From: Shigella phage vB_SsoS-ISF002
Direction: 5' to 3' (one strand)
Length of the DNA stretch: 50,564 nt
Sequence record: MF093736
In this document: positions 2,434 through 49,145 of the stretch, piece by piece
Layout of the letters: each line of letters opens with the position of its first letter
Position numbering within the stretch: position 1 is the stretch's first letter
Notes under the pieces: generated by a model
The model's database searches: none
What the model saw: only the letters and a program-made list of their open reading frames with translations
What the model was told of the DNA's origin: nothing
Program-made: the position numbers and the translations under genes

Positions 2434-2496
2434 GAAATACCCTCTTTGTTTTCTATGTGGTCAATATACCCGAATCCCTTCGGGCGTTTTTATCAA

Positions 2497-3648
2497 TTAG
2501 TGCGATCCTGTCATTTCTGGACGATAGATGAAGCGACCGATTTCCCCAAACTGCTTATCGTAAACAATTACAGCCGCCTGGCGATATGAGCGCCACCCTC
2601 CGCGTGCTGCGTATGCGTCTTTCGCGCCTAACTGACCGTGTACTTCATCAATACCAAGCGAGTGCTCAGTGATTGTCTGGTGATGCCAGTGACCACTATG
2701 AGTATACACATACTTGCTCTCACCGAAGTCTGATCGGAAATCTGCCGCCATTGCTGCAAGTCGCGTGTCTGCCTTTTTCATAGTGTGCCCGTGAGTGTAT
2801 CCCAACAAGGTATTTCCCCAACGAGTCTTATGCAGAATCATAGGACTAACGTCAACGAATACTCGCGGCTCGTCTTCATAATATGCCGACATTGCAGCTC
2901 GCAGCCAAATCATCCCAGACTGATCGTGGTTCCCTTCGATAACCTGGACCTCTACTTCTTTGTGTTTCATAAGCATTTTGTCGATGGCTCGGCGTACCGA
3001 ACGAATCGCAACATGCACTAATTTTGCGTATCGTGAATCCTGATCAAGAACGTGACCACTTGCCGGGGTAACTGCATCAAGGCCGTCAGAGTGAAGGAAG
3101 TCGCCGCCGATTAACAGAACGGCCTTCTCTGCGTTCGGTGCGATATCGATCGCGTAATTAAAGAAGTCGCTAAGCACTTTTTCCGCTACGTCGGTGGAAT
3201 AGTTCTCACCGCATTCATGCTTATGAGCAAGCGCGCCAATATGGAGATCGAATACCGGATAGAGTGCCAGCTTACCCATCGCTGTCGTAAGCCCTTGCGA
3301 GGTTAGTAGCTCGGTTGGCTTTGCTCGTGGCAGGTCTTCACAGAATGCAATACGCGCAGCTTCCATCATTGCCGCAATCTTCTCACGGTCCTGATCGGTC
3401 TTAACCCATCGCACTACCTCGGTACCATCGCCGCGAATCATCGTTGATGTGCCTTTTACCATGAATCCTTCCGGTACGTTCTTAGCAACATGCTCGTTAC
3501 CGTGGAAGTGACCTTCTTTTGCAAGTTTGGCGTGACGCGCTTCAACTGTGCGGATGTGCATACCGTACTTTTCCGCGATCTCGCGAAGTGTTAGGCCATT
3601 CATGCGCTCTTCGACAAGTTGTTCGGTAGTGATTTTAGCTTGTGACAT
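2497..3648 (-). CDS. calcineurin-like metallophosphoesterase with an N-terminal helix-turn-helix segment
   Basis: Phosphoesterase motifs GDFLHSD, EGNHD, GHTH and GHWHH; N-terminal LTLREIAEKYGMHIRTVEARHAKL resembles an HTH. Confidence 0.7.
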   Translation of the reverse strand: MSQAKITTEQLVEERMNGLTLREIAEKYGMHIRTVEARHAKLAKEGHFHGNEHVAKNVPEGFMVKGTSTMIRGDGTEVVRWVKTDQDREKIAAMMEAARIAFCEDLPRAKPTELLTSQGLTTAMGKLALYPVFDLHIGALAHKHECGENYSTDVAEKVLSDFFNYAIDIAPNAEKAVLLIGGDFLHSDGLDAVTPASGHVLDQDSRYAKLVHVAIRSVRRAIDKMLMKHKEVEVQVIEGNHDQSGMIWLRAAMSAYYEDEPRVFVDVSPMILHKTRWGNTLLGYTHGHTMKKADTRLAAMAADFRSDFGESKYVYTHSGHWHHQTITEHSLGIDEVHGQLGAKDAYAARGGWRSYRQAAVIVYDKQFGEIGRFIYRPEMTGSH

Positions 3649-3726
3649 ATTTTAATCCTTACATGATAATGAAATACATTACTAAAAATGAAATTAGCGG
3701 TGTCAATACTACAGCAAAATAAAGAT

Positions 3727-4128
3727 TCATGCCACAGCCTTTAACCAGAATCCTAGATCTGACGATTTAAACTCAACCAGCTTTCCGTCAACCTCAAGCA
3801 TCATACTGTTTCTACCAGGTGAGTAATAACCTATATGCAACTCCTGATCGATCCCTATGGTACACAGCACGTTTGCGAAGTCAGGAGGCAACCAATCAGA
3901 GAAAGGTATTTTCTTAACCTGCTTCTTTCCGATCCATATGGTCTGGTAATCGTCTTCGTTAATGTTTAAGCCTGGAAGGCTTGTTGTTCTTTGCTGCTTT
4001 TCGTTCTCTCTCAATTCTCTTTCCCTCTTCACGATAAAACTCAAGTGACGGAGTTGCTGGCACTCTATGCATTTTTCTCGGCATATCTTCCATAAATGAA
4101 ATCTTGCCGTTTGAAATAATGCTAACAT
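3727..4128 (-). CDS. hypothetical protein; 5' end uncertain
   Basis: ORF overlaps the 3' end of the 3959..4231 ORF in another frame; ATG at 4128 has a poor RBS; an internal TTG with an agggaaagaga RBS is an alternative start. Confidence 0.3.
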   Translation of the reverse strand: MLALFQTARFHLWKICREKCIECQQLRHLSFIVKRERELRENEKQQRTTSLPGLNINEDDYQTIWIGKKQVKKIPFSDWLPPDFANVLCTIGIDQELHIGYYSPGRNSMMLEVDGKLVEFKSSDLGFWLKAVA

Positions 4129-4231
4129 CCTTTATATCGAAGTATTTAGCAATTAATGCTATATCGCCTGAGATCCCGCATTCCTTTGCGTGCTCCCACA
4201 CTTCGCGCTTACCTTGCTTTTTTATCAGCAT
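3959..4231 (-). CDS. hypothetical protein (90 aa)
   Basis: ATG at 4231 preceded by ggagaaaa. Confidence 0.4.
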   Translation of the reverse strand: MLIKKQGKREVWEHAKECGISGDIALIAKYFDIKDVSIISNGKISFMEDMPRKMHRVPATPSLEFYREEGKRIERERKAAKNNKPSRLKH

Positions 4232-4433
4232 TAGTTATTTTCTCCACGTCAGAGATAAAGCCTTCGACTTCTTCAACCGAGCAACGGTAATAAGACATTT
4301 TAAGGAAGTTCATAGCAATATCCCAATCGAAGTTGCCGCCTTGCTTGTTCGTAATATGAACGGCCATTTTTGCAGACTGCTGGGCGATATTGAAAAAGTT
4401 TGCGTTAATGCGTGCCATCTTCTGATTCCTCAT
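4209..4433 (-). CDS. hypothetical protein (74 aa)
   Basis: ORF about 43 nt downstream of a box unit with a TATAGT -10-like hexamer. Confidence 0.4.
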   Translation of the reverse strand: MRNQKMARINANFFNIAQQSAKMAVHITNKQGGNFDWDIAMNFLKMSYYRCSVEEVEGFISDVEKITNADKKAR

Positions 4434-4475
4434 TTCGTTTCCATGAAATAACTATACCCGACTTTCGCCGGGTAG

Positions 4476-4494
4476 TTTTAGCAATTAGTGCTGT
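4476..4494 (-). promoter_or_regulatory. conserved intergenic box (variant)
   Basis: Plus strand reads ttttagcaattagtgctgt; it contains the stop codon of the gene above it. Confidence 0.45.
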
Positions 4495-4736
4495 GTGATT
4501 ATCTCAGAAGAAAGTTCTTCTACGTCTTTTTGGATGATTAATGGCCAATTCTCAATGTATTCATTCCTTATCTCTTCGAAAGACATATCAAGAGAACTAG
4601 TGAACTCCCACAGATCGCAACCAATAACATCCTTAGTCAATCCATTTCGCTCCATAATCTCGCAGCACGTAGCTCGATAAAGTAGCCATAAACCTTGCTC
4701 AGTTAATTTAACAGGAACCATTTTTTCGCTCATCAT
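4485..4736 (-). CDS. hypothetical protein (start at internal ATG overlapping the Dam stop, ATGA)
   Basis: RBS ggtgaggaaag before ATGATG; the start overlaps the upstream stop, suggesting translational coupling. Confidence 0.45.
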   Translation of the reverse strand: MMSEKMVPVKLTEQGLWLLYRATCCEIMERNGLTKDVIGCDLWEFTSSLDMSFEEIRNEYIENWPLIIQKDVEELSSEIITQH

Positions 4737-5446: not shown

Positions 5447-5498
5447 TTTTAATCCTCTCGTTTCGGTGAGATAATAATGCCAGATTCCATTCCGGCGG

Positions 5499-5517
5499 TT
5501 TTAACAAAAAGTGCTAT
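5499..5517 (-). promoter_or_regulatory. conserved intergenic box
   Basis: Plus strand ttttaacaaaaagtgctat; contains the VRR-NUC stop (TAG); about 55 nt upstream of the Dam start. Confidence 0.5.
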
Positions 5518-7958: not shown

Positions 7959-7987
7959 TTGAATCGTTGTAACGTTTACGCTATAAT
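7959..7987 (+). promoter_or_regulatory. sigma70-like promoter for the plus-strand HTH and primase genes
   Basis: TTGAAT, 17-nt spacer, TATAAT. Confidence 0.5.
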
Positions 7988-8005
7988 ACACGGCATACAG
8001 TAAAC

Positions 8006-8026
8006 GTTTTTAGCAAAAAGTGCTAT
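8006..8026 (-). promoter_or_regulatory. conserved intergenic box upstream of the helicase
   Basis: Plus strand tttttagcaaaaagtgctat, about 60 nt upstream of the helicase ATG. Confidence 0.5.
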
Positions 8027-8038: not shown

Positions 8039-8491
8039 ATGAGTATTCAACGTATCGCAGAGTCAACTGGTGAAATCGATAAACGTCACATCAATGGTAA
8101 CAACGGAACACGACGCGGTAAAGATAAAAAGCCTCGACAGCGCTGCGGCTTCTATATTCATAAAGAAGAAACACGCGCCGGATTGCGAGCGCGACTTGAT
8201 GCGCTTATCGAATATTATGGTGGCCCTGCGGCCTGCGCAAAAGCTCTAAAGGTTAGCAATCAGACGGTGCAAGGCTGGAAAGAACGCAACATGATTTCGT
8301 GGCAAGGTGCTGAAGCTGCGCATCGTGCTTACCGACGACAGGGGTGTAAAGGGTTTCGTGCCGCATGGTTGCGATTCGACCTGAAGTTTGACGGTAACGG
8401 CAAGTGCCTTGAGAAGCGATGCAAGAACAAGAAATTTATGCGCGTCGTGAAGAAGGAAGATATCGGGACGACCAATAGCATTTTTAGTTAA
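8039..8491 (+). CDS. helix-turn-helix DNA-binding protein (candidate transcription regulator)
   Basis: Cro/CI-type HTH-like segment AKALKVSNQTVQGWKE; basic N-terminus; RBS taggaga. Confidence 0.5.
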   Translation: MSIQRIAESTGEIDKRHINGNNGTRRGKDKKPRQRCGFYIHKEETRAGLRARLDALIEYYGGPAACAKALKVSNQTVQGWKERNMISWQGAEAAHRAYRRQGCKGFRAAWLRFDLKFDGNGKCLEKRCKNKKFMRVVKKEDIGTTNSIFS

Positions 8492-8494
8492 AAC
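8475..8494 (+). promoter_or_regulatory. conserved intergenic box overlapping the 3' end of the HTH gene
   Basis: atagcatttttagttaaaac; its TAA is the gene stop (...NSIFS*). Confidence 0.45.
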
Positions 8495-8499: not shown

Positions 8500-8537
8500 A
8501 CGCGTAGCGGGTTAACATCCTTCTACGCGTTTTTTAT
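8500..8537 (+). terminator. hairpin with T-run (candidate attenuator or terminator)
   Basis: 8-bp stem acgcgtag / ctacgcgt with a large loop, followed by ttttttatttt. Confidence 0.4.
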
Positions 8538-9516: not shown

Positions 9517-9545
9517 TTGCAAGGCAGGTGGCACAATGATAAAAT
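9517..9545 (+). promoter_or_regulatory. sigma70-like promoter for the tail fibre gene
   Basis: TTGCAA, 17-nt spacer, TAAAAT; followed by a box and the RBS aaggag. Confidence 0.5.
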
Positions 9546-9550
9546 CTGTG

Positions 9551-9568
9551 CTTAGCAATTCGTGCTAT
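9551..9568 (-). promoter_or_regulatory. conserved box inside the tail fibre 5' leader (orientation opposite to the gene)
   Basis: cttagcaattcgtgctat between the promoter -10 and the RBS. Confidence 0.4.
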
Positions 9569-9588: not shown

Positions 9589-11382
9589 ATGGCTTTATAT
9601 AGACGCGGCACTGCATCAATGGATGCAGACGGCACGGTTCACGGAACCGATACAAAATGGAAAGATCAACTTGCTCTGATTCGAGTCGGTGCAACTATCG
9701 TATTCCTGGAGCAACCAATTAAGCTGGCGGTGATTAGCGATATCGTTAGCGACACAGAGTTAAAGGCTATCTCTACGGATGGTCAGACTGCCGCTGACGG
9801 TAAGTATGTGATCCTGCTTAACGATTCGTTGACTGTTAACGGATTAGCTCAAAACGTTGCTGAGACGCTTCGATACTATCAAAGCAAAGAGACTGAGATC
9901 GCGGCAGCTATAGATCTGATAAATCAGCTTGATATGAATAAACTTGAGCAAATAGTTGCTGATGTGAATCAGGCGAAATCTGATTCTCAAGCTGCGCAAA
10001 ATCAGGCTGAATTAGCGCGTGACGCAGCCAACGCTGCACGCGATGAAACTAACTCAATCAAGAATCAGACGCAACAGATTGTTGACGGTGCTGTCGGTAG
10101 CATCAATGCGGCTAAGGATCAGGCTATAACCGATGTGCAGCAAAAAGAAAATTCATCCATCACTCACATTGACTCAGAAGAAGCGGCGGCGATTCAGGCA
10201 ATTAATGACGCAAAAGGCGATCTGTCAGGTTACGTTAATGACGCTCAGACGGCAGCACAAACGGCGACCTCTGCAAAAAACGACGCTCAGGCAGCGCGTG
10301 ACGATGCGGTAAGCTCAAAAGATGCGGCTGCGGTAAGTGCTCAAGAAGCAAAAGACGCAGCTAACAGCATCAATGCTGAAAATCTTTTAACTAAGGATGG
10401 CAATCTAGCTGGTCTTGAGGATAAAAAAGAGTCAAGAAAAAATATTGGGTTAGGTGAAAATGATGCTGTTAACTTTCTTACTATTAACACCACTGGCGCT
10501 ATAGCTGCAGGAAGGAATTCATGGGACGGTTCTAGCTGGGGTAGTCAGTCCATATTGTCATCATTGATGATTATGTCACCTGATGGAATATCTACGCCAG
10601 GTATTTACGTCAGAAAAGAACGTAGCGATAATGGTTATGCTGGGACTTTATTATTTTATGAAGGGGCAAACTACTTCGAGACTAACAATAGATTTAGAGC
10701 CAATCAGTTTTTATGCCAGAAAACATCTATGGGTTACAACCAGATGTGGTCTGCTTCATGCTTCCAGGGTAATTCTTACACCGCCGATAGTGGCGCTGAA
10801 AACTATCAATCACTTGTTGCTGGATCGTGTGATACAAGGGGGCAAGGGTATGTTGGCGGCGTAGCATTTGGCATGATGACTACGGGTAATGCTGAATGGC
10901 CCAGAGCACAAATATCAGTAGGCACTCAAGATAGGGATGTAGCAGGCAATATTGGTCTGCAAATGCATTTCAGGTTTATGGCTTCAGGGCAAATATCTTA
11001 CGCTGGACCGCAAGGGGCTGGAAGTTTCCAACAGGTTCCGGCATCTGACAGAAATATAAAGCACAGCATAAAGGATGATGAATCAAGCATCGCATACAAC
11101 AACATAAAGTCAATGAGATTTAGGAACTTTATATTTAACGACGATGAGCAAGAAAGGGTAAGGCGAGGTGTTATAGCTCAGGAGATAGAAGAGATCGACA
11201 ATCTATATGTTAAGAGAAGGGTGTATGAGAGCCACGAGCTAAACGGGCCAAAAGTTGAAAGACTTGAGCTTGATACAACTCCTTTATTGCTTGACACTAT
11301 GAGAGCTTTACAGGATACAATAAAGAAAGTTGAAGAGTTACAAGAAAAGATAAAAATGTTGAAGAGTTACAAGAAGAGATAA
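9589..11382 (+). CDS. tail fibre protein with a C-terminal intramolecular chaperone domain
   Basis: Long Ala/Gln/Asp-rich coiled N-terminal half; C-terminal VPASDRNIKHSIKDDE...AQEIEEI resembles the autocleaving chaperone domain of phage fibres and endosialidases. Confidence 0.7.
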   Translation: MALYRRGTASMDADGTVHGTDTKWKDQLALIRVGATIVFLEQPIKLAVISDIVSDTELKAISTDGQTAADGKYVILLNDSLTVNGLAQNVAETLRYYQSKETEIAAAIDLINQLDMNKLEQIVADVNQAKSDSQAAQNQAELARDAANAARDETNSIKNQTQQIVDGAVGSINAAKDQAITDVQQKENSSITHIDSEEAAAIQAINDAKGDLSGYVNDAQTAAQTATSAKNDAQAARDDAVSSKDAAAVSAQEAKDAANSINAENLLTKDGNLAGLEDKKESRKNIGLGENDAVNFLTINTTGAIAAGRNSWDGSSWGSQSILSSLMIMSPDGISTPGIYVRKERSDNGYAGTLLFYEGANYFETNNRFRANQFLCQKTSMGYNQMWSASCFQGNSYTADSGAENYQSLVAGSCDTRGQGYVGGVAFGMMTTGNAEWPRAQISVGTQDRDVAGNIGLQMHFRFMASGQISYAGPQGAGSFQQVPASDRNIKHSIKDDESSIAYNNIKSMRFRNFIFNDDEQERVRRGVIAQEIEEIDNLYVKRRVYESHELNGPKVERLELDTTPLLLDTMRALQDTIKKVEELQEKIKMLKSYKKR

Positions 11383-11429: not shown

Positions 11430-11430
11430 G

Positions 11431-12537: not shown

Positions 12538-12611
12538 CTTAACTTCTCCTGATTGGTGTATGAGGTGCATTATAACACCTCATTAATTATTTGTTTAGCT
12601 ATTTGTGCCGT

Positions 12612-13676
12612 TTACTTGTTTTGATATCGTACCCATGACGGCGTTTCAAGTTCAATCTCGCTTGCATCGCCAGCGTATCCAGGCCAAACATCCATTTCAG
12701 AGCAAGCCTTGTAAGTGTGGACTACGCTAATGTACTGGTTACGACCGATCCTGATTTGCTCCATAGTCATACGGTAAGCTAGTGCGATATAAGGTTCTTT
12801 TTTCTCCTGCGCAAGCAATCTAACCACGATCGGGATATCTTCCGGGAAGTTTCCTTCAAAAGCGCCAGCCTGGATTGCGCGTCGTAGCAGGTCATGCTGT
12901 AAGGCCATTTTCAGATAATACCCGTGATTGTATGCCAGTCGCGGGAACTCTAACGGGTTGGCGCTCATCGTAGTTTTGAAGTCAGTAATAATCAGCGCTT
13001 CCGGGAAAATTACGTCTTCATACACCGGATCGCCATTCTCATCATAACCAGTCAGGACACGACCTGGAACATTCTCCTTGTAATCAAGGTGGTCAAGTCG
13101 AACCTTAACCTTGACGCCGGATATCTCACCGAAGATTGAAATCTCACGCTGCGCCGTTTCGCTGTTGATACACGCTTCATGATCCGGATTTTGCTCAAGT
13201 ATGGCTCTCATCTTCATGCAGGCGTCGTATTTATCAGCGTCAACGAGTTTCTTTCCTTCAGCGCGCGCCTCAGCTTCTGCGATCAGTTCAATCAGGTATT
13301 GAACGTTGAGTTCTTCACCGCAATCAACCATCATTTTGATGAGGTCAGGGTACTGCTTCCCGGATGTACCTTTCAGGCCAAATGATTTTAATTTTGCCGC
13401 TAGTGCAGCTTGCGAAGTAATGAGATCTTTAAACTCTGCCGGAGCCGGGCAACGGGCATACGATGCAGTAAACAGATCTCGGCTCTCAAAGTTGGTGTGC
13501 GACTGAGTACCAAACTCCAGCGCTTTAGTCGTCTCGTTCTTCTTGAATCGCCAGTTAGCCGGGCAAGTCTGATAAATTTCTGCAAGGCTCGAACCGCTTA
13601 CATACTCTGCCGCCCAACCTTCGTTACTATGATACTCGTCATTAGAAAGCTGACTTGATGTGAATACTTGGAACAT
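12612..13676 (-). CDS. PD-(D/E)XK-type recombination exonuclease (RecE/Cas4-like fold, tentative)
   Basis: Nuclease-like core (ITDFKT ... YxxxK); sits next to Erf and SSB as in phage recombination modules. Confidence 0.5.
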   Translation of the reverse strand: MFQVFTSSQLSNDEYHSNEGWAAEYVSGSSLAEIYQTCPANWRFKKNETTKALEFGTQSHTNFESRDLFTASYARCPAPAEFKDLITSQAALAAKLKSFGLKGTSGKQYPDLIKMMVDCGEELNVQYLIELIAEAEARAEGKKLVDADKYDACMKMRAILEQNPDHEACINSETAQREISIFGEISGVKVKVRLDHLDYKENVPGRVLTGYDENGDPVYEDVIFPEALIITDFKTTMSANPLEFPRLAYNHGYYLKMALQHDLLRRAIQAGAFEGNFPEDIPIVVRLLAQEKKEPYIALAYRMTMEQIRIGRNQYISVVHTYKACSEMDVWPGYAGDASEIELETPSWVRYQNK

Positions 13677-14203
13677 TGCGTTTATCTCCTTCGTTTACGA
13701 TGAATCCATTATAGCCATTAACGGCGTTTAGTCAATCGAATACATGTAATTGGTGTGTAATAGCGTGTCTATATCGCTCAAGTTACAACCAGCATTAACG
13801 GAATCAATTGCTTAAGTCTATTTTTATGTGATGTCTACTGTGTAATACTTGTAACCGCTTTTTCTTAGAAATACAGAGATAGCTACAAGTAGAATCCATA
13901 TTGATTAAATTTTGAACATATATGATAGAAATTTGACGAATCAATCAAATCACCAGTTACACGATAGACAACTGTTACACAACAATAATTATATATATAA
14001 AGCTAAAATTAAATATTATCTATCTATATATATTATATAGAGTTTTTATCATATCCCTCTGCTGTCGGGTGGGGTGGATTTTGTAACACCCGCTCCGGTT
14101 ACAAAAATAGACACCCGTTACACGAAAAAAACTGTAATCGTGCTATTGCAATAAAAGTAAATGCGACATACAATGCAATCACACTAACGACGAGGACATA
14201 CAA
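13677..14203. promoter_or_regulatory. AT-rich divergent intergenic control region
   Basis: 527 bp non-coding; atatata tracts; GTTACAC repeats; palindrome TTGTAAC-N10-GTTACAA at about 14080..14103; TAGACAACTGTTA element shared with the 44.9-kb region. Confidence 0.5.
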
Positions 14204-18871: not shown

Positions 18872-18918
18872 GATGTTTACCTTTTTGTGCTATTTATCGG
18901 TGGACTCATTATACAGGC

Positions 18919-24406: not shown

Positions 24407-24733
24407 TTAGTTATTCTGCTTAGCAATCATTTCAAGCGCTTTCGCTTCCATGATCCTAACGTCCTGCAATGCCAGTTCTTCATCTTCTATTTTATAGATT
24501 TTAAACAACATAGGCAAAACATTATAGTCAAGACCATAAGCGCCAGCGCCTGAACTTCTCCACTGAGTGAGCATTGATGTAAAAACATTCCAAGCCTTCA
24601 CCATTTCAGCGTCGCCAATTATCGTTTCAGGTTCCTCGTCTTCATAGTCTGAAAGACTTAAACCAACCGATCGCAATTGTTCCTCTGTTGGCGGCTTCTG
24701 ATATAACAGATAGACCGCCTTTTTTAGTTTTTT
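24407..24733 (-). CDS. T segment of the tail assembly chaperone, reached by -1 frameshift from G (fusion product 25041 down to 24407)
   Basis: Frame is open upstream of the annotated TTG start and overlaps the end of G in the -1 frame. Confidence 0.55.
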   Translation of the reverse strand, partial: KKLKKAVYLLYQKPPTEEQLRSVGLSLSDYEDEEPETIIGDAEMVKAWNVFTSMLTQWRSSGAGAYGLDYNVLPMLFKIYKIEDEELALQDVRIMEAKALEMIAKQNN

Positions 24734-25041
24734 GCGCGGTGTCCGGCAAGAGCCTTGATGTAAGTCGCTGTCAGGTTGTACGCTGCTGAAGGATAATACT
24801 GAACCAGTTTTCGCGCATTTTCTTCGTTAAATTCTTCTTCAAGGTTCCATCCTGACGCGATCTTGGTAATGAACTCGCTGTCGTTCATTTCTCCCTGGTT
24901 GGCATACATATCCTGAACTTCTTTACTGGAAAGGTGGCGTACAGTGAAAATGATCGTTGCATCTTCACCGTTAGGCATGGTGAAGGTAACTGGAAGTTTG
25001 AAGTCTGGAAGTTGACCAAGAATAAAATTAAATTTAGCCAT
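24724..25041 (-). CDS. tail assembly chaperone (lambda G-like)
   Basis: 105-aa acidic protein between the major tail protein and the tape measure gene. Confidence 0.7.
   Translation of the reverse strand: MAKFNFILGQLPDFKLPVTFTMPNGEDATIIFTVRHLSSKEVQDMYANQGEMNDSEFITKIASGWNLEEEFNEENARKLVQYYPSAAYNLTATYIKALAGHRAKN
24727..24733 (-). other. slippery heptamer A_AAA_AAC for programmed -1 ribosomal frameshifting
   Basis: Minus-strand reading gca aaa aac taa; the heptamer sits immediately before the G stop and the -1 frame continues open. Confidence 0.6.
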
Positions 25042-25062: not shown

Positions 25063-25082
25063 ATGGCACTTTTTGTTAAAAG
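25063..25082 (+). promoter_or_regulatory. conserved box in the tail-module leader (inverted relative to the gene)
   Basis: atggcactttttgttaaaag. Confidence 0.4.
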
Positions 25083-25124
25083 AGAATAGTGCAAACTTGA
25101 TACGATGATTTTACAGAAATGAAT

Positions 25125-28774: not shown

Positions 28775-28829
28775 GATTACTTCTCCTTAGTTAATAAAAA
28801 AAGCCGTGATTATGTTCACGGCTTCAATA

Positions 28830-28848
28830 ATAGCACTTTTTGTTAAAG
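28830..28848 (+). promoter_or_regulatory. conserved box upstream of the major capsid gene (inverted relative to the gene)
   Basis: atagcactttttgttaaag. Confidence 0.4.
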
Positions 28849-28866
28849 CGTCAAAGTATTTTTGTG

Positions 28867-29634
28867 TTATGACTCTTCTTCTTCGGCTGGCGCAGCATCA
28901 AAAACATAAGTGATCGATTCTTTAGTTTTGCTGGCATCGTTAGCCGTCCAATTTACGATTACGCTACCTGCCGCATCTCCACCAATTGGAGTAAGAACGC
29001 CAGATTTTGGATCTATTGTCGCAATATTTTCAGCATCAACAGACCACACGCCAGTTTTATCGGTGGCATTGTCAGGTTTTACAGCAACGTTAAATTGCAC
29101 AGGTGCATTGTTTGGCTGAGGACTCTCCTTGTTAGTTGTAATCGTCGCAGACTCAACAAGAACCACGGGAGGGGGTGGAGGTGGAACAATAAAGGCATTT
29201 TGCTTAACCTGAACCTCAATAATGTACCCGTCCTCGTGCTTAACAAATCCACCAGCAAAAGTCCAACCTACGGAACCAGAGCTACCAGTAACAACACCAC
29301 CAGATCCAAATTGTAACTTTGAGAACAAGGCCGGAGCTTCATCAAGAGAAGTTAGCGTCCACACGCGACCATGAGAAACGACGTTGCAAACTTCACCGTC
29401 GAGGATTTTACCGCTCAGGTGTTCATATTGGGAACGGAAAGCGATTCCGTAAGGTGTTTCACCATCAGTAAGCGTGGAAACAACCTTAACGCCGTCAACA
29501 ATACCGATAACTTTAACAGCGGAGCCGAACTCAATATCGCCTTGAGCAACACAAGATCCATCAATATTGTAGGTTGAAGTATCCGAAAGATTACCAGGGC
29601 ACGCCGGGCGTAACATTAAATTTTCGTAAGGCAT
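28867..29634 (-). CDS. structural protein, paralogue of 29694..30170 with a Pro-linker and Ig-like C-terminal extension (possible capsid decoration)
   Basis: N-terminal 140 aa align with the upstream paralogue (NIDGSCVAQGD ... HGRVWTLTSLDEAPALF); then PPPPPP and a beta-rich domain. Confidence 0.5.
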   Translation of the reverse strand: MPYENLMLRPACPGNLSDTSTYNIDGSCVAQGDIEFGSAVKVIGIVDGVKVVSTLTDGETPYGIAFRSQYEHLSGKILDGEVCNVVSHGRVWTLTSLDEAPALFSKLQFGSGGVVTGSSGSVGWTFAGGFVKHEDGYIIEVQVKQNAFIVPPPPPPVVLVESATITTNKESPQPNNAPVQFNVAVKPDNATDKTGVWSVDAENIATIDPKSGVLTPIGGDAAGSVIVNWTANDASKTKESITYVFDAAPAEEEES

Positions 29635-32058: not shown

Positions 32059-33331
32059 CTTCTAACTTCTCCCCTAATCCCGGCTCCGGCTCTGTTGTTT
32101 CTTCCGGTTCGCGAATGTTGATGTTATTACCATCCTTGAGTTTGAACTCAGGCGCAATGGATCGCAACGTGTCGCGAGCTTCTTCCAGATCGATGATTTG
32201 CTCGGTGATGGCTTTCGTTACCGACTCAATGTTGTTCTTCGTGATCTCGGATTCTTCTTTCTTGCTCGGGACCGACAGCGGCTCAAACTCGATGGACCAC
32301 TCTTCTTCGTCAACAATGAATGGCAAAATAAACTCAAGAAGCGGCCTGTAATCCTCTTCTCGTTTACGATCGATTAACTTATAGAAAGTCTCAAGCGCTG
32401 TGTTCTGACTGGCTGATACGCCACCAACGTTCTTATTCTTGATGATAATCTCATGAATACCAGAAAGCGAGACAATGCGGTCCATCTTGCTTGATAGGAA
32501 CTCAGGAACTCCGCTGATATCAGAGTTTAGAACGTCGTATTCTTCCGTCTCGGCATCGATACCGATCGCACGGCCAACACCTGAATTATCGTCAACCTGA
32601 GCCAGTCTCAAGCGCGCTGCATACTGAGCATCATCATCATCACACATTTCAGCAAGACCTTTGACTTTCCATACCGCCTGCTGCTTACGCCTCAGGATCT
32701 GAGTCGCTAGAGATTCGCAGTAGTCGTAATCGCAGATCGCATCAATCAGTGACTTGTTCAAAACTGAAGCACCCCACCCTTGATTCTGCTTTCGAATCTG
32801 AGGTGTTACTCGCTCACCATCAGCAATAAAAATTCTTGTGTGGTGGATTAAGTAAGGTTGAAGATTATCACCAGGAGATACCTTGTATATCTCAGGCTCA
32901 CCATAGCGAGGCGATCGAGCATTGGTTACTCTTTTTTCGATTGTAATTGCGAATCTATCATAAACACGCACACCTTCAAGTTTAGCTCCAGGTTTAACAG
33001 GGCTGGTTAACATTCTGTTGTCATTAATGATCGCTACAATAGCCGCTCCACCGTATAGGCGCGCCCAGCAAAGAACATCAACCAAGCTAGGATCAATTTT
33101 GTAACTATCCCACAGAGATTTGAACTCCTTTTCATCCTTGACTCCTGATATTTTAAAACCAGCCGTAACCATCTCTTCAGGGATCACGTCGACAATTCTT
33201 TTCGCTGTCGCGTTATCGTTATAGAATGAGCCGACGTTATATGACGCATCAACCATAAAAAATGGTTTAGGTGAGCCGTCCGCGCCGCCGTTAAAGATAT
33301 CGTTATAACCATCATGCTTAACAATTTTCAT
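32048..33331 (-). CDS. portal protein
   Basis: 427 aa immediately downstream of the large terminase; acidic C-terminus. Confidence 0.75.
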   Translation of the reverse strand: MKIVKHDGYNDIFNGGADGSPKPFFMVDASYNVGSFYNDNATAKRIVDVIPEEMVTAGFKISGVKDEKEFKSLWDSYKIDPSLVDVLCWARLYGGAAIVAIINDNRMLTSPVKPGAKLEGVRVYDRFAITIEKRVTNARSPRYGEPEIYKVSPGDNLQPYLIHHTRIFIADGERVTPQIRKQNQGWGASVLNKSLIDAICDYDYCESLATQILRRKQQAVWKVKGLAEMCDDDDAQYAARLRLAQVDDNSGVGRAIGIDAETEEYDVLNSDISGVPEFLSSKMDRIVSLSGIHEIIIKNKNVGGVSASQNTALETFYKLIDRKREEDYRPLLEFILPFIVDEEEWSIEFEPLSVPSKKEESEITKNNIESVTKAITEQIIDLEEARDTLRSIAPEFKLKDGNNINIREPEETTEPEPGLGEKLEDED

Positions 33332-35519: not shown

Positions 35520-35534
35520 AAATCAATCCTCTTC

Positions 35535-35553
35535 GTTTAACATTTAGTGCTAT
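35535..35553 (-). promoter_or_regulatory. conserved box (variant) at the start of the packaging/structural operon
   Basis: Plus strand ttaacatttagtgctat. Confidence 0.4.
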
Positions 35554-37308: not shown

Positions 37309-37364
37309 TTCGATTTTCTCTCTTCGTTGTCGATGAGGTGACTATATCAAATCACCCCACCGAC

Positions 37365-37384
37365 GTTTTAGCAATTAGTGCTAT
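37365..37384 (-). promoter_or_regulatory. conserved intergenic box
   Basis: Plus strand gttttagcaattagtgctat. Confidence 0.5.
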
Positions 37385-38595: not shown

Positions 38596-38660
38596 GATTT
38601 ATTCCTCTGATTGGTTGCTTAACTCAACGAAGGGCATTCTAACAAATGCCCTTGAGCAAG

Positions 38661-38679
38661 TTTTAGCAATTCGTGCTAT
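38661..38679 (-). promoter_or_regulatory. conserved intergenic box
   Basis: Plus strand ttttagcaattcgtgctat. Confidence 0.5.
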
Positions 38680-39125: not shown

Positions 39126-39180
39126 GAGTGCTTCCTCGTTTGTTGGTGTAGGGGAATCATAGCGCATTCCCCTTGATAGG

Positions 39181-39199
39181 TTTTAGCAATTCGTGCTAT
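39181..39199 (-). promoter_or_regulatory. conserved intergenic box
   Basis: Plus strand ttttagcaattcgtgctat; contains the upstream gene's TAA. Confidence 0.5.
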
Positions 39200-40472: not shown

Positions 40473-40535
40473 GATGCCTCACTGATTGGTTGCCATTCTT
40501 CAATAAGGCCACTATATCAAATGGCCTTGCGGAAG

Positions 40536-40554
40536 GTTTAGCAATTCGTGCTAT
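40536..40554 (-). promoter_or_regulatory. conserved intergenic box
   Basis: Plus strand gtttagcaattcgtgctat; contains the TAG stop of a small ORF. Confidence 0.5.
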
Positions 40555-41206: not shown

Positions 41207-41262
41207 AATGATTTCCTCTTAGTGGTTGATATGGGGATTGTACCAGTCAGGCCAAATCCCCT

Positions 41263-41281
41263 TTTAACAATTCGTGCTTAG
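41263..41281 (-). promoter_or_regulatory. conserved intergenic box (variant)
   Basis: Plus strand ttttaacaattcgtgctta. Confidence 0.45.
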
Positions 41282-41766: not shown

Positions 41767-41821
41767 GTTATCGTCCTCGTTCGTTGTCGATGTGGTTACT
41801 ATATCGCAACCACATGATCGC

Positions 41822-41841
41822 GTTTTAACAAAAAGTGCTAT
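41822..41841 (-). promoter_or_regulatory. conserved intergenic box
   Basis: Plus strand gttttaacaaaaagtgctat. Confidence 0.5.
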
Positions 41842-42780: not shown

Positions 42781-42843
42781 GGTTAATCCTCTGATTGGTA
42801 TCTCGTTTCGATGGGGTAACTATAGCAAGATGCCCCGATCCGG

Positions 42844-42862
42844 TTTTAACAATTCGTGCTAT
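42844..42862 (-). promoter_or_regulatory. conserved intergenic box
   Basis: Plus strand ttttaacaattcgtgctat. Confidence 0.5.
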
Positions 42863-43526: not shown

Positions 43527-43582
43527 CTTTGTTTCCTCATTCGTTGTCGATGGGATAACTATACCAGGTTATCCCGATCCGG

Positions 43583-43602
43583 TTTTAACAAAAAGTGCTA
43601 TT
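43583..43602 (-). promoter_or_regulatory. conserved intergenic box
   Basis: Plus strand ttttaacaaaaagtgctat; contains the TAG stop of the upstream gene. Confidence 0.5.
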
Positions 43603-44605: not shown

Positions 44606-45217
44606 GGCTTGCAGGTCGATTTTAAGTGTGGTTAATCGTGTTAATCGTGTTAATCGCTTTCCCCATATAAATATGAGCCGATAAAACTACTGTATATATA
44701 AACATGAATACAATAATCAGAGCATCCAACGATTAACATAGTAGACACGCTATACAACCATATTACAGATAATAGTATCTATATATATAAATAAAAAAAA
44801 TACTTATATATTATATATATACATATAGATATATGTATATTATAAGGCGTAATTTGGTGTAATTTTGTCTACTATTGAGATTCAGGCAAATTGTAGACAA
44901 CTGTTAACACACGGTCAAGTGTAACCGTAATCGATAGCACGTTTTGCTAAAAATGGAGATAACCACCAGGCGAACCGGGTAACACCAGATCCTCCCTCTC
45001 ACAATCATTGCATTCTAAGCAACAAATAAACCAACTGTTGCACACCGTGCAATAATCACGTTTCATCATTCGTAATCAATAACAATCAAGGTTATTACAC
45101 CTATTCCAGTATTGATGGAATAATGAGCAATTATTGGAATAGCATTTTTTGCTAACGACTCGGTCGGGTAGGTCGGGTATAGTCCGGCCCATAAACCAAT
45201 CAGAAGAGGAAGCAACA
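44606..45217. promoter_or_regulatory. AT-rich divergent control region between the two arms (candidate origin, packaging or early-promoter hub)
   Basis: 612 bp non-coding; tatatata tracts; 3 tandem GTTAATCGT 9-mers at 44631..44657; boxes at 44934 and 45138; CAACTGTT elements at 44897 and 45034. Confidence 0.5.
44631..44657. repeat. three tandem 9-bp repeats (gttaatcgt, gttaatcgt, gttaatcgc)
   Basis: Direct reading. Confidence 0.9.
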
Positions 45218-45922
45218 ATGAAATTAATCTGGTCACTATTCGACGGTTCAGGTCTTGCAGGTCATGAGCTAGCAAAGCAAGGCCATAAGGTGATGTGCTT
45301 CAACTTTGACGGAGCCGATCACGGAGATTACGCAAAGTACAACGCCAGGGTTGAGCATCATAACATTGAGTATGTGAACGTCTTTATTAATGAGAAGTTC
45401 GAACGTGATGCTATCGCGGGTGTGTATGGCAAGCCTGATTTCATCATGGCATTTCCTCCATGCACTGACCTGGCTGTTAGTGGCGCTGCTCACTTCGCAA
45501 GAAAGCGTGAGCGAGATCCGTTATTCCAGGAGAAGGCTGTTGCTACCGCCCGGATTGCTGCGAATATTGGCGACTCTCTTGGCGTGACTTACATAATTGA
45601 GAATCCGGTGAGTGTCCTGTCATCTGCCTGGAGAAAACCAAATCACTCCTTCAACCCCTGGGAGTATGGCGGCTATCTTCCTGAGAATGACGCACACCCC
45701 TGGTTCCCTATGTATATTGCGCCGCGCGATGCTTATCCGAAGAAAACTTGTCTTTGGACCTCGGACGATTTTGTCATGCCGGAGAAAAAACCTGTAAGCC
45801 TGCCTGACGGGTACTCTACGCAACACAGCAAGCTGGGCGGCAAGTCGGCAAAGACGAAGCTGATACGATCCCTGTCGCCTCGTGGATTTTTCAAAGCGAT
45901 CGCAAATAGCACTTTTTGTTAA
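45218..45922 (+). CDS. compact DNA (cytosine-5)-methyltransferase-like protein
   Basis: Motif I-like LFDGSG, catalytic PC-like FPPCTDLAVSG, ENV-like IIENPVS; start at ATG with RBS gaggaagcaaca. Confidence 0.5.
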   Translation: MKLIWSLFDGSGLAGHELAKQGHKVMCFNFDGADHGDYAKYNARVEHHNIEYVNVFINEKFERDAIAGVYGKPDFIMAFPPCTDLAVSGAAHFARKRERDPLFQEKAVATARIAANIGDSLGVTYIIENPVSVLSSAWRKPNHSFNPWEYGGYLPENDAHPWFPMYIAPRDAYPKKTCLWTSDDFVMPEKKPVSLPDGYSTQHSKLGGKSAKTKLIRSLSPRGFFKAIANSTFC

Positions 45923-45925
45923 AAC
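45906..45925 (+). promoter_or_regulatory. conserved intergenic box overlapping the 3' end of the methyltransferase gene
   Basis: atagcactttttgttaaaac; its TAA is the gene stop. Confidence 0.5.
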
Positions 45926-45982
45926 TCGATCGGTGCGATTTGGCATAATTACCTCATCGAAACGAGATTGAGGAAAAACAAA

Positions 45983-46183: not shown

Positions 46184-46369
46184 ATGAAAACGAAATTAGT
46201 GCATAAATCAGAAATCAAGATCGGCGATACTGTGATTCACAACGGAGAGTTAAGGACGGTTGATAAGCAGTCAATAAGCAGAGATGAATTTATGGGTCTG
46301 TTGTTGTTCGGCGACTCATATCGCCTAGGATACAAATTTGTCGAGCTTGTTGAGGATGTAAAATTCTAA
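46184..46369 (+). CDS. hypothetical protein (61 aa)
   Basis: ORF followed by a box. Confidence 0.45.
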   Translation: MKTKLVHKSEIKIGDTVIHNGELRTVDKQSISRDEFMGLLLFGDSYRLGYKFVELVEDVKF

Positions 46370-46378
46370 ATAGCACTT

Positions 46379-46398
46379 TTTGTTAAAACACGCCCGGT
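46379..46398 (+). promoter_or_regulatory. conserved intergenic box
   Basis: atagcactttttgttaaaac. Confidence 0.5.
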
Positions 46399-46444
46399 TA
46401 ATCAGGGTATAACTCCAACATAAACCAATCAGGAGAATGACTAG

Positions 46445-46825: not shown

Positions 46826-46995
46826 TCGTATATATCGTTATGGGCGGCGTTACATATGAGGGTGAATATGTAGAGACTGTTCACCTTGATGAGAAGAAGG
46901 CGAAGCAGTACGAAAACAGAATGAAGGAACAGATTCGCGCCGGAAAAAGCATGTACGACTACACGACGATTGTTGAGAAGGAAATTACCGAATAG
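46822..46995 (+). CDS. hypothetical small protein (57 aa; not in the supplied ORF track)
   Basis: MIVYIVMGGVTYEGEYVETVHLDEKKAKQYENRMKEQIRAGKSMYDYTTIVEKEITE*; RBS ggagga; its stop TAG is inside a box. Confidence 0.4.
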   Translation: MIVYIVMGGVTYEGEYVETVHLDEKKAKQYENRMKEQIRAGKSMYDYTTIVEKEITE

Positions 46996-47010
46996 CACTT
47001 TTTGCTAAAC
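46992..47010 (+). promoter_or_regulatory. conserved intergenic box
   Basis: atagcactttttgctaaac, followed by the inverted repeat gggatgac / gtcatccc around tggtatagt. Confidence 0.5.
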
Positions 47011-47066
47011 GCTCATCCGGGATGACTGGTATAGTCATCCCATCAACAGCAAGCGAGGAAAGAGTT

Positions 47067-47438: not shown

Positions 47439-47631
47439 TAATATTTACCGCGTAGTTGCGATCTCACGCAAAACGCAAAAGAGTGTGATCGCTTACATGG
47501 GTAGTAGCGCCATTGAAGCTACGGATGCCTTCGAATTATTGAAGAACAACGAGGGATTTATGAACACGTTCCGCGTTCGACTTGAGCGCCTCGAGCCTGT
47601 TATCATTGATGAAGCGCGAAAGCTATCCTGA
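47431..47631 (+). CDS. hypothetical protein (66 aa)
   Basis: ATG with RBS aaggagg. Confidence 0.45.
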   Translation: MNDNIYRVVAISRKTQKSVIAYMGSSAIEATDAFELLKNNEGFMNTFRVRLERLEPVIIDEARKLS

Positions 47632-47648
47632 CTGGTTAAGGGGGAGCA

Positions 47649-47969
47649 ATGAAACACACTTACAAAATCACAACGAAGTCACCGAAGATTAACGGAAGCA
47701 CGGTTGCGGCACTGAATAACGCGGCGGCAATTCACGAAAAAAATATCATGGAGCGCGTGAAGGCGGCGGTAGGTAGATTCTACGGGATCAATGCCGACAT
47801 TGCCGACAGCAAGCGACTGTTCAAATACGTTCCAGGTCATCCATATGGCAGGATGATTGATATCAAGCATGAAAAAGAATTGGTTCGAATCGGATCGCTA
47901 AGCATTGATGAGTTCGATCATAGCATCAACCTGGTGACGGCGTATCAAACTTGGGACGGTAAAAAATGA
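47649..47969 (+). CDS. hypothetical protein (106 aa)
   Basis: ATG with RBS aagggggag. Confidence 0.45.
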   Translation: MKHTYKITTKSPKINGSTVAALNNAAAIHEKNIMERVKAAVGRFYGINADIADSKRLFKYVPGHPYGRMIDIKHEKELVRIGSLSIDEFDHSINLVTAYQTWDGKK

Positions 47970-48109
47970 TTTATATTCACACTTTCTATACTGGCAAATT
48001 TAACAGCGTAAAAAATGTTCGCGTTTACGATAGCCACCAAACAGCAATGATGCAGAGAGTAGTTCTAGGCGGCACAATCAAAGAGTGCAAAGTAATTTCT
48101 GAGTACTGA
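47966..48109 (+). CDS. hypothetical small protein (47 aa; not in the supplied ORF track)
   Basis: ATG overlaps the upstream TGA (ATGA); stop just before a box variant. Confidence 0.3.
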   Translation: MIYIHTFYTGKFNSVKNVRVYDSHQTAMMQRVVLGGTIKECKVISEY

Positions 48110-48185
48110 TAGCACGAATAGCTAAAGACAATCAGCAGGGAGTAAGGTATATTACTCCCACACCAAACAAACAAAGGAATTAAAA

Positions 48186-48410
48186 ATGAGCATTAAAGTT
48201 GAGAATATCATCAAGCACCTGAACGCGAAAGGCCGTGTAGTTATCAAAATGGATAAGTCTTCCGGTTTTATTTCAATGACGGTAACTAAGACTCGTAACG
48301 GTAATAACGTTATCGGCAGCACGCCAGGCTCGCGCTTAGTAAATGCAACAGATGCTGATGTGCGCGCTACGCTTGAGGCTAACTCAATTTACATTAATTC
48401 ATGGAGTTAA
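48186..48410 (+). CDS. hypothetical protein (74 aa)
   Basis: ATG with RBS aaaggaa. Confidence 0.45.
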   Translation: MSIKVENIIKHLNAKGRVVIKMDKSSGFISMTVTKTRNGNNVIGSTPGSRLVNATDADVRATLEANSIYINSWS

Positions 48411-48413
48411 TTG

Positions 48414-48626
48414 ATGGAACGGGATAATTTCTGGACTCGTTATTTTGCCGCTCTTGATGCCGGGCTTAGTGCGGAATGGTGTATCAAGGTTGCATATAAA
48501 GAAATTACGCTTGACGAAGCGCTAGGGAATATGGATATGGACGCAGAAAGTGAATATAATCCCGACTTCGAGATGCCAGACGATGATATTGGTGATAATG
48601 ACGACGACGATTATATTCCCTGGTAA
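48414..48626 (+). CDS. hypothetical protein with a strongly acidic C-terminus (70 aa)
   Basis: C-terminal DDDIGDNDDDDYIPW. Confidence 0.45.
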   Translation: MERDNFWTRYFAALDAGLSAEWCIKVAYKEITLDEALGNMDMDAESEYNPDFEMPDDDIGDNDDDDYIPW

Positions 48627-48645
48627 ATAGCACGATTTGTTAATA
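48627..48645 (+). promoter_or_regulatory. conserved intergenic box (variant)
   Basis: atagcacgatttgttaata. Confidence 0.45.
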
Positions 48646-48706
48646 TTGCCGTAAGGTCATTTGATAAAGTGACCTTATTCAAGATAACCAATCAGGAGTT
48701 AACGAA

Positions 48707-49123
48707 ATGAAATCCATCAAACTGAAATGCACTTACGCAGATAAAATCACAGGATTTGAAGTAAACAACCTATACAAGGGTCGTGAGCGCTATGATGGCA
48801 CTCGCGAAGTAAAATTAAAATGCGGCAAGTATTTAAAACTTGAAAAGCATGATGAATTACAGATTCACGGATCTGATGAAATCTTCTTCGCGAAGTTCAC
48901 TGAGTTGAAAACAAAGACGCTCAAGTGTACCGGGCTTGACCATCGCAACCCAATGAAAAAATCATTCAAAGTTGGCAAGCGTTACCAGGTTGAAAGCGGT
49001 CGCGCTCTCGGTGGCGTAGCTGGTTACATCTTTGATGAAGATGGTTGTCGCTGGACCTTATTTCGCGAAGAGGTTGGTTTTAGTATCGCAGACGGCACAA
49101 CCTTTGAGGCCAAATACTTATAA
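48707..49123 (+). CDS. hypothetical protein (138 aa)
   Basis: RBS within the accaatcaggag leader. Confidence 0.45.
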   Translation: MKSIKLKCTYADKITGFEVNNLYKGRERYDGTREVKLKCGKYLKLEKHDELQIHGSDEIFFAKFTELKTKTLKCTGLDHRNPMKKSFKVGKRYQVESGRALGGVAGYIFDEDGCRWTLFREEVGFSIADGTTFEAKYL

Positions 49124-49126
49124 CCA

Positions 49127-49145
49127 ATAGCACTTTTTGCAAAAC
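49127..49145 (+). promoter_or_regulatory. conserved intergenic box
   Basis: atagcactttttgcaaaac, followed by the inverted repeat ggtgta / tacacc around tatcat. Confidence 0.5.

Follow-up and report, generated by a model that had tools for sequence, protein, structure and literature searches.

The closest described counterparts of the element considered here, a 20-bp box that recurs at gene boundaries of Shigella phage vB_SsoS-ISF002, are the marboxes read by the bacterial regulators MarA, SoxS and Rob. The published marbox/soxbox/robbox consensus, AYnGCACnnWnnRYYAAAY(n), is an asymmetric site of 20 bp, the motif obtained for MarA by chromatin immunoprecipitation sequencing (ChIP-seq) is GCAHWWWWTGYYAAA, and the motifs of these regulators are reported to be indistinguishable. 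Class II promoters carry a forward box that overlaps the -35 region, with the micF box centred at -41.5, and class I promoters carry a backward box further upstream. In a cryo-electron microscopy structure of Rob and RNA polymerase at micF, the 20-bp box spans -50 to -31, and Rob reads G-47, A-45, G-38, T-37 and the A:T pairs at -35/-34. On the phage side, a 2024 re-annotation of phage TLS described a 21-nt direct repeat (aaATAGCACnnnTTGnTAAAA) at 21 places, present also in T1, Rtp and Rogue1, which runs with transcription about 76 nt before start codons (PMC11447400). Its authors, who found only three sigma70-like promoters in TLS, offered stoperators, enhancer sites and UP elements as guesses and listed the function of the repeat as an open question (PMC11447400). 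A further relevant system is the PeSL cassette of the T4-type phages RB49 and phi1, whose stem-loops have been shown to terminate transcription and whose repeats mediate gene shuffling (PMC2839356).

Our analysis covers a window of 50,564 nt (MF093736), to which all coordinates refer; the phage, a T1-like Tunavirus, aligns collinearly with Shigella phage ISF001 at about 96% identity. We find that the box matches the host marbox in sequence, orientation and spacing, and we propose that the phage probably borrows host MarA, SoxS or Rob to run its early genes. The repeat itself was already known, having been described in print from TLS, T1, Rtp and Rogue1 with no function assigned, and an earlier sequence-only reading of this DNA was in that respect out of date in stating that nothing explains the element. 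What is new, within the searchable literature, is that the repeat is here identified as a marbox of the host type, placed in class II, class I and operator-like arrangements. The TLS repeat is the same element as the box described here, with the same three N3 sub-classes and the same direction relative to transcription, but the TLS paper mentions neither marboxes, nor a fixed -10, nor a class I copy (PMC11447400). In the searchable literature we found no other mention of the repeat and no start sites or transcriptomes for the Drexlerviridae: a PNAS 2026 transcriptome is that of a T5-like phage, the KanT1 paper makes no statement on promoters, and a TolC review does not connect the TLS repeats to marboxes.

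Sequence and distribution of the box

The sequence-only reading had written the element as ATAGCAC-N5-TTGYTAAAAC. In this form it has no match in the window even at three mismatches, because the real spacer consists of three bases; the corrected pattern, ATAGCAC-N3-TTGYTAAAAC (ATAGCACNNNTTGYTAAAAC), yields 26 sites at up to three mismatches against 0.33 expected, a count reached in none of 100 shuffles. Far above chance, the element is present at every coordinate that had been listed, with the adjustment that the site placed at 46379 lies at 46370-46389 and that the one placed at 45138, though real, is a weaker copy at 45139-45158 (19 bits). Boxes at 725(+) and 4143(-) and weak copies at 12592(-), 18874(-) and 5107(-) had been missed. 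A position weight matrix (PWM) built from the phage boxes adds four weaker copies, at 45139, 12592, 18874 and 5107.

Although 88.6% of the window is coding, all 26 strong boxes lie outside, or at the very end of, coding sequence, taking in no more than the last 17 nt of the gene upstream. Thirteen boxes contain the stop codon of that gene, as TAG (box positions 2-4) or as TAA (15-17 or 8-10). An unrelated Escherichia coli phage of the same size, TH23, which served as control, has one site compared with 24-30 in the window. Positions 4, 5, 6, 13, 16 and 17 are invariant in 26/26 boxes, position 10 is A or T in all 26, and position 14 is C or T in 25. Among the invariant bases are G4, C5 and G13, with C7 near-invariant (24/26), and positions N3 and Y14 vary freely. 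Two earlier remarks, that the box is a poor palindrome and that it points the same way as the early genes, are correct, the copy at 44934 being the exception. A sigma54 promoter, whose consensus has GG and GC elements exactly 10 bp apart (TGGCAC-N5-TTGC), was considered and rejected: the spacer is N3, positions 3-4 are AG, and the N5 version is without matches.

How close is the box to its bacterial counterpart? Used as an independent probe, the published marbox consensus detects 24 sites at no more than one mismatch (four of them exact) against 1.15 expected, and these sites are the phage boxes. The MarA ChIP-seq motif corresponds to box positions 4-18; exact copies number 14 in the window, 11 in T1, nine in Rtp and eight in Klebsiella phage Sushi, with none in the control phage. 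The bases contacted by Rob fall on box positions 4, 6, 13, 14, 16 and 17, nearly the set that is invariant in the phage, and the conserved bases match those contacted by the two helix-turn-helix (HTH) motifs (A site GCAC, B site YAAA). The asymmetry of the box is what a monomer with two different HTH motifs would need. In the reverse direction, the phage PWM recovers in E. coli the marboxes known for mar, micF and ybjC and has no matches at inaA, sodA and nfo, because a phage-derived matrix is too strict for degenerate host sites. The description of the box as a phage-specific signal is not supported, given that its consensus, contacted bases and class I and class II geometry make it indistinguishable from the host mar/sox/rob box.

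Promoter geometry and the candidate reader

A search range of 22 nt places the best -10 match exactly 18 bp past the box at 20 of the window's 30 sites, and the same offset recurs in T1 (14/24), Rtp (16/20) and Sushi (12/17). About 23 cassettes have a forward box 17-19 bp upstream of a -10 element, the distance being exactly 18 bp in 20 of the 23. They lack a -35 element at 16-18 bp (mean score -0.9 bits vs 7.8 for the consensus), 12 of the 23 carry a TGn extension, and C-A-T is conserved at the predicted positions -1/+1/+2. Taking the conserved A as +1 puts the box at -50 to -31, with its centre at -40.5. In E. coli, we measured ACAGCACTGAATGTCAAAAC, 18 bp and TAGAAT for micF, which has a poor -35, and a forward box, 19 bp and TACAGT for ybjC. 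Because the box-18-(-10) layout equals that of micF, the phage cassettes are built exactly like this promoter: they share an asymmetric box with GCAC and YAAA, placed forward over the -35 region, and 18 bp to the -10, and the cassette at 38660 (ATAGCACGAATTGCTAAAAC-18-TAGAAT) has the same hexamer at the same spacing. Unlike those of E. coli class II promoters, the phage boxes come close to the consensus, form part of stem-loop cassettes and occur about 25 times per 50 kb, a number comparable with the 22-56 ChIP peaks per regulator reported for the whole Salmonella genome; binding to them is predicted.

The copy at 44934 is not oriented along the rightward genes, as had been thought, but is the backward, class I site of the strongest leftward early promoter. 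It has no -10 on its own strand; leftward, TTTTTAGCAAAACGTGCTAT is followed after 15 bp by TTGACC and, after a further 17 bp, by TACAAT. The marRAB control region has the same plan, with a backward box (GATTTAGCAAAACGTGGCAT), 16 bp, TTGACT, 17 bp and TATTAT, so that in both cases a good -35/-10 pair is preceded, at 15-16 bp, by a backward box. The phage site differs in that its spacer is 1 bp shorter and that it drives a phage early operon. T1 keeps this layout with different hexamers (box-15-TTGATT-17-TATGAT), and a regular-expression search for the class I type gave no match in Rtp and Sushi. That the orientation rules of both classes are present would be difficult to account for if the reader lacked the shape and the RNA polymerase contacts of a MarA-type protein.

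In conjunction with the sequence match, this geometry leads us to the following model. The box would be read as an asymmetric site by a monomer of MarA, SoxS or Rob, or of RamA in Klebsiella and Salmonella. A forward box would replace the -35 element, with the activator touching sigma region 4 as well as the alpha subunit's C-terminal domain (alpha-CTD) in the class II manner of micF; some 23 early and middle transcription units would accordingly be activator-dependent class II sigma70 promoters, and the first leftward early promoter would be of class I, in the marRAB layout. Each early box would be part of a PeSL-like terminator-promoter cassette that also comprises a stem-loop rich in GC, a conserved leader and a ribosome-binding site. 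We consider it fairly probable that these are promoters dependent on host MarA, SoxS, Rob (or RamA) and packaged in such cassettes; the binding of these proteins, activation or repression by them, and the positions of the start sites are what we infer from the sequence. Activator-dependent marbox promoters are a known kind of system, here in an unexpected place. Middle promoters of phage T4 are similar in forming a regulon without a -35 and with an activator box and a good -10. The T4 MotA box has its centre near -30 and its readers are encoded by the phage (MotA/AsiA), whereas the box in the window is centred at -40.5 and no MotA or AsiA family appears among our Pfam results. The earlier view of the box as a promoter-associated regulon signal to which a protein binds, and not itself a -35, is supported.

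An alternative is that RNA polymerase alone reads the box, as an UP-like element or a substitute for the -35, which would make the early promoters strong and constitutive. UP elements are A/T-rich sites for the alpha-CTD at about -40 to -60. The T-tract and A-tract of the box resemble them, as the TLS paper suggested (PMC11447400), and the extended -10 found in half of the promoters could work without a -35. We regard this alternative as quite improbable, in that the invariant bases include G4, C5, A6 and G13 and do not form an A/T tract, the box at -50 to -31 is outside the usual UP-element region, and neither the backward copy 15 bp before a complete promoter nor the copies over late promoters would be explained. 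As individual candidates, an UP element was rejected for its mismatch with the fixed G4, C5 and G13, the nearly fixed C7 and this location, and TTGYTA cannot serve as a -35, since it lies 22 bp from the -10 and is too far away.

It is also conceivable that the box is a stoperator-like or RNA-level signal, which would either halt elongation or, with the stop codon and hairpin, work at the level of the read-through mRNA. Its single orientation relative to transcription, its location between genes, and the presence of boxes with stop codons in read-through RNA are in keeping with such a role. The rigid 18 bp to the -10, the conserved start-site motif, the functional-looking copies on either strand relative to genes and the absence of an annotated repressor or integrase in this virulent phage make it extremely improbable. 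An L5-type stoperator, which is a repressor site inside a transcription unit of a temperate phage and has no promoter attached, was likewise rejected, on the -10 at a fixed 18 bp and the lack of an annotated repressor or integrase.

Which protein, then, reads the box? The proposed check of conservation in related phages showed that box, orientation and 18-bp gap are unchanged in T1, Rtp and Sushi, among subfamilies whose capsid proteins are 49-55% identical, which points to a very conserved reader. Across about 60 viral contigs, 310 of 427 unselected sites have the -10 offset of 18 bp. A Pfam search of the 51 non-structural phage proteins detected no HTH_18 or HTH_AraC domain, and MarA as a phmmer query had no match among 546 six-frame open reading frames (ORFs). 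The only protein with a PHROG match to transcription regulation is the HTH protein encoded at 8039..8491, which Pfam assigns to the Cro/YdaS type with a single HTH and which was on this ground rejected as a homologue of MarA. Between subfamilies its identity is 50-53%, and its putative recognition helix differs at about six of ten positions. This protein and the phosphoesterase (2497..3648) had both been proposed as binders. The results support neither, the former having a single HTH and a recognition helix that varies while the box is constant, the latter having no Pfam DNA-binding match (nothing at E ≤ 0.01). As a separate observation, the Sushi homologue (32110-33240) of the product of 2497-3648(-), a 383-amino-acid "DNA repair exonuclease", is annotated with sigma70 region-4-type and metallophosphatase domains; a sigma-region-4-like domain would be of interest beside promoters without a -35.

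A phage-encoded regulator nevertheless has to be weighed, most plausibly the HTH protein as a dimer that binds the box, activates from about -42 in the manner of lambda cI at PRM and represses overlapping promoters, including its own. It is present in the window, T1, Rtp and Sushi, stands alone in its PHROG category and has a box in the leader of its own gene, and the box does contain an inverted repeat, TAGCA-N5-TGCTA, with half-site centres 10 bp apart. We find this reading unlikely, given the strong asymmetry of the box, in which A1, C7, T11 and A17 are near-invariant and yet not mirror images, and in which position 14 is C or T at near-equal frequency opposite the invariant G4. The orientation relative to the -10 is fixed, the box copies the host marbox position by position and obeys both class rules of a MarA-type monomer, and a single HTH with a variable recognition helix contrasts with an invariant box. 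Given that no AraC-type phage protein was found, that the HTH helix varies and that box, orientation and gap are constant, the simplest reader is a conserved host protein, and we think it reasonably likely that this reader is of the MarA/SoxS/Rob type.

Several points weigh against such a host reader. Evidence from binding, footprinting, start-site mapping or genetics was not found in the searchable literature. Reports describe Rob as mostly sequestered and inactive unless inducers are present, with MarA and SoxS made only upon induction, so that the amount of active protein at infection may not suffice. Half of the promoters, those with TGn, may fire without an activator, and the partial palindrome, together with the universal conservation of the phage HTH protein, may leave room for a phage reader. 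The PWM was made from phage sites, and host sites beyond mar, micF and ybjC scored poorly. Finally, four or five boxes (25063, 35534, 18874, 4143 and 5107) fall outside a clean class I, class II or operator layout.

If the identification of the box as a host-read marbox is correct, it addresses both points raised by the TLS study, the open function of the repeat and the scarcity of sigma70 promoters. We found no virulent phage family in the searchable literature with most of its early promoters tied to a host stress activator. The activators concerned are those behind multidrug resistance; the reading would connect phage susceptibility with the physiology of antibiotic resistance and with gut signals, bile salts among them, and would bear on phage-antibiotic combinations. 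It would also yield compact, insulated, activator-dependent promoter cassettes for synthetic biology.

Boxes over other promoters and a possible switch

The window contains few canonical sigma70 promoters, three of which have a box placed where it would block them. In the tail-fibre promoter (TTGCAA-17-TAAAAT) a backward box covers about -3 to +17, in the major-capsid promoter (TTGACG-16-TATTAT) a backward box occupies the spacer, and in the promoter of the Cro-like HTH gene (TTGAAT 7959-7964, 17 bp, TATAAT 7982-7987, plus strand) a box lies at about +13 to +32. The earlier observation of boxes beside the promoters at 7959-7987 and 9517-9545 is confirmed, the boxes lying beside or over them. 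Judged by its location over the core promoter or start site of the tail-fibre, capsid and regulator genes, the box would be in a repressor-like position. The capsid promoter (AAAGTGCTATTAT) resembles the E. coli rob promoter (AAAATGCTATTAT), in which a backward box-like sequence is likewise fused to TATTAT; the rob site is a weak marbox match (5 bits), and MarA reportedly represses rob through a marbox between -35 and -10.

The -10 hexamer of the HTH-gene promoter overlaps on the opposite strand that of the box-dependent helicase promoter (7983-7988, minus strand), so that RNA polymerase can sit one way or the other and not both. The box may favour the leftward helicase promoter over that of the HTH gene and may thus form a switch, in which the activator would choose at 7982-7988 between the leftward helicase and the rightward regulator/primase/tail-fibre promoter. 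Taken together, the locations of the boxes suggest that a single protein switches the early genes on and holds the late and regulator promoters down. For T1-like phages (Drexlerviridae, including the Klebsiella phages of the genus Webervirus used in therapy) we tentatively extend this to a scheme, which we regard as rather doubtful, in which the host's MarA/SoxS/Rob/RamA pool would be sensor and timer, activating about 23 early promoters, blocking those of the capsid, tail-fibre and Cro-like genes and, by titration, flipping the program from early to late. We speculate that replication would produce hundreds of genomes with about 25 consensus boxes each, which would out-titrate the activator and bring about this transition. 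Should the scheme hold, permissiveness to these phages would differ in hosts that over-express MarA, RamA or SoxS, among them many multidrug-resistant isolates, and in cells exposed to bile salts, salicylate or redox drugs.

Two boxes also face possible -10 elements on their own strand. At 25063 this is TACGAT at 18 bp (TAAGAT in T1, where the intervening spacer has diverged), and at 28830 it is a -10-like TGtTATGAC at exactly 18 bp. Both (25063-25106 and 28830-28873, plus strand) may be antisense promoters into late genes; the former could also be an operator. The box at 35534, before TerS, is possibly a roadblock or an operator. As a side observation, transcription from the predicted capsid promoter (28774-28832, minus strand) would begin within a strong terminator hairpin (AAGCCGTGA...TCACGGCTT, then T7), in its 5' arm, so that the transcript would contain a truncated stem only; this overlap may be an attenuator or a terminator bypass.

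Cassette anatomy and mobility

A complete cassette consists, in order, of the box, 18 bp that contain or run into a GC-rich stem-loop, the -10 (TATAGT, TATATT, TAGAAT, TACAAT and similar hexamers), six bases, C-A-T, a leader, a ribosome-binding block, often ACCAATCAGGAG, and a start codon 41-73 nt after the box. The sites and their contexts are collected in the table below.

Boxes in the window with their predicted promoter elements and neighbouring genes (distances in bp are those between box and -10)
Feature	Position	Strand	Elements and context
Class II cassette	725..744	+	box ATAGCACTTTTTGTTAAAAC; TATATT 763-768 (18 bp); intervening hairpin; gene 806..1021
Class II cassette	2487..2506	-	box ATCGCACTAATTGATAAAAA with stop codon of 2497..3648; TATATT 2463-2468; hairpin CCCGAA/TTCGGG
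Weaker, class II-like	4143..4162	-	box ATAGCATTAATTGCTAAATA; TGn + TAGCAT 4119-4124 (18 bp); no hairpin; next gene 128 nt on
Class II cassette	4475..4494	-	box ACAGCACTAATTGCTAAAAC; TATAGT 4451-4456; terminator-like hairpin directly before -10
Weak copy	5107	-	from the weight matrix
Class II cassette	5498..5517	-	TGn + CATTAT 5474-5479; before Dam methylase gene
Class II, predicted leftward helicase promoter	8007..8026	-	-10 TATTAT 7983-7988
Class II-like	8475..8494	+	box with stop codon of HTH gene; TAACAT 8513-8518 inside true terminator hairpin + T-run; primase downstream
Backward box, tail-fibre promoter	9549..9568	-	TTGCAA 9517-9522, TAAAAT 9540-9545; no -10 at 18 bp on own strand
Degenerate box	12592..12611	-	ACGGCACAAATAGCTAAACA, exact marbox consensus; TGn + TATAAT 12569-12574 (17 bp); hairpin GAGGTG/CACCTC; Erf gene downstream
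Weak box	18874..18893	-	10.8 bits; differs from marbox consensus at 1 position; tail J start 2 nt on; kept in T1
Box against late genes	25063..25082	+	just upstream of ribosome-binding site of 24724..25041(-)
Backward box, major-capsid promoter	28830..28849	+	fills spacer of minus-strand promoter; TTGACG 28849-28854, TATTAT 28827-28832
Forward box	35534..35553	-	14 nt before TerS start, after early-arm terminator; no -10 follows
Class II cassette	37365..37384	-	TGn + TATAGT 37341-37346 in hairpin loop
Class II cassette	38660..38679	-	box ATAGCACGAATTGCTAAAAC; 18 bp; TGn + TAGAAT 38636-38641; before PNK gene
Class II cassette	39180..39199	-	TATGAT 39156-39161; hairpin AGGGGAAT/ATTCCCCT
Class II cassette	40535..40554	-	TGn + TATAGT 40511-40516
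Class II cassette	41261..41280	-	box TAAGCACGAATTGTTAAAAG; TGn + TACAAT 41237-41242
Class II cassette	41822..41841	-	TATAGT 41798-41803; stem with one compensatory change vs T1
Class II cassette	42843..42862	-	TGn + TATAGT 42819-42824
Class II cassette	43582..43601	-	TGn + TATAGT 43558-43563; hairpin GGGATAAC/GTTATCCC ends at -1; CAT includes predicted +1
Class I promoter, leftward early arm	44890..44953	-	backward box 44934-44953 (written on +); TTGACC 44913-44918; TACAAT 44890-44895
Weaker class II	45139..45158	+	box ATAGCATTTTTTGCTAACGA; TATAGT 45178-45183 (19 bp); first rightward early promoter (methylase gene)
Class II cassette	45906..45925	+	TGn + CATAAT 45944-45949
Class II cassette	46370..46389	+	TATAAC 46408-46413
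Class II cassette	46992..47011	+	TGn + TATAGT 47030-47035; hairpin GGGATGAC/GTCATCCC
Class II cassette	48109..48128	+	TATATT 48148-48153 (19 bp)
Class II cassette	48627..48646	+	TGn + TAAAGT 48665-48670
Class II cassette	49127..49146	+	TATCAT 49165-49170; helicase gene downstream

The stem-loops differ in sequence at every copy, and 15 of 22 fold with z < -2 relative to shuffles (mean -3.0). They are of two types, one lying between the box and the -10, where the T-rich -10 then resembles a terminator tail, and one holding the -10 in its loop, with the 3' arm ending at -1; related records annotate them as rho-independent terminators. Between the window and T1, the hairpins show one compensatory change, five wobble-compatible changes and four broken pairs, with change per position of 0.042 in stems and 0.083 in unpaired bases. 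T1 is too close for a powered test of this kind, and the case for the hairpins therefore rests on the stem differences among paralogous copies and on the folding z-scores. The resemblance to PeSLs lies in a stop codon, a promoter, a stem-loop near or over the -10, a Shine-Dalgarno sequence and an ATG, repeated between small early genes, and in apparent mobility; PeSLs differ in having a consensus -35 and needing no activator, where the phage cassettes have a marbox in place of the -35.

Such likeness raises the question of whether recombination between cassettes, by PeSL-style shuffling or gene conversion, and not a binding protein, is mainly what keeps the repeats alike. The architecture is that of PeSLs, which mediate shuffling, and a complete cassette occurs in the unrelated T4-type phage KP15. 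As an explanation of the conserved box we hold this to be very improbable: conservation is position-specific, with N3 and Y14 free and the contacted bases fixed, the stems differ at every copy, and the box is kept across subfamilies. Recombination would be compatible with the marbox explanation, accounting for mobility without replacing it.

Two observations bear on this mobility. Klebsiella phage KP15 (GU295964, a 174-kb T4-type genome) has a complete T1-type cassette at about 10.0 kb (10066-10085, minus strand), with box ATAGCACTTTTTGTTAAAAC, 18 bp, TATAGT inside a GGGGTA/TACCCC hairpin and the leader CATCGAAAC, in front of an ORF of 90 amino acids (9739..10011, minus strand). The proteins of the window had no matches in the 12 kb of DNA flanking this cassette, where no T1-like genes were detected, and the region is common to 146 T4-type records. 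In Rtp, forward cassettes at 6316, 8425, 16303 and 21393 (plus strand) lie inside the late structural region, preceding inserted genes, two for HNH endonucleases and two small ones, rtp22 and rtp34, between structural genes, and the cassette is thus not confined to the early arms. The KP15 and Rtp copies suggest that the cassette moves as a module.

The cassettes share a conserved transcribed leader, CATCGA(A/C)AACGA, which runs from the predicted +1 to +12 (e.g., 43540-43551, minus strand) and is likewise conserved in T1, Rtp and Sushi. It may act in promoter escape, as an RNase site or as a target for the phage DUF3850 "RNA-binding" protein. The same leader also follows a box-less sigma70 promoter, that of the exonuclease VIII gene (TTGACT-16-TATAAT, 13676-13700, minus strand; predicted start at about 13701). 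In some cassettes (e.g., 38600-38615, minus strand, and 46425-46440, plus strand) the ribosome-binding region consists of a second conserved block, ACCAATCAG(A)GGAG, which plays the same part at some late genes, for instance before 25041.

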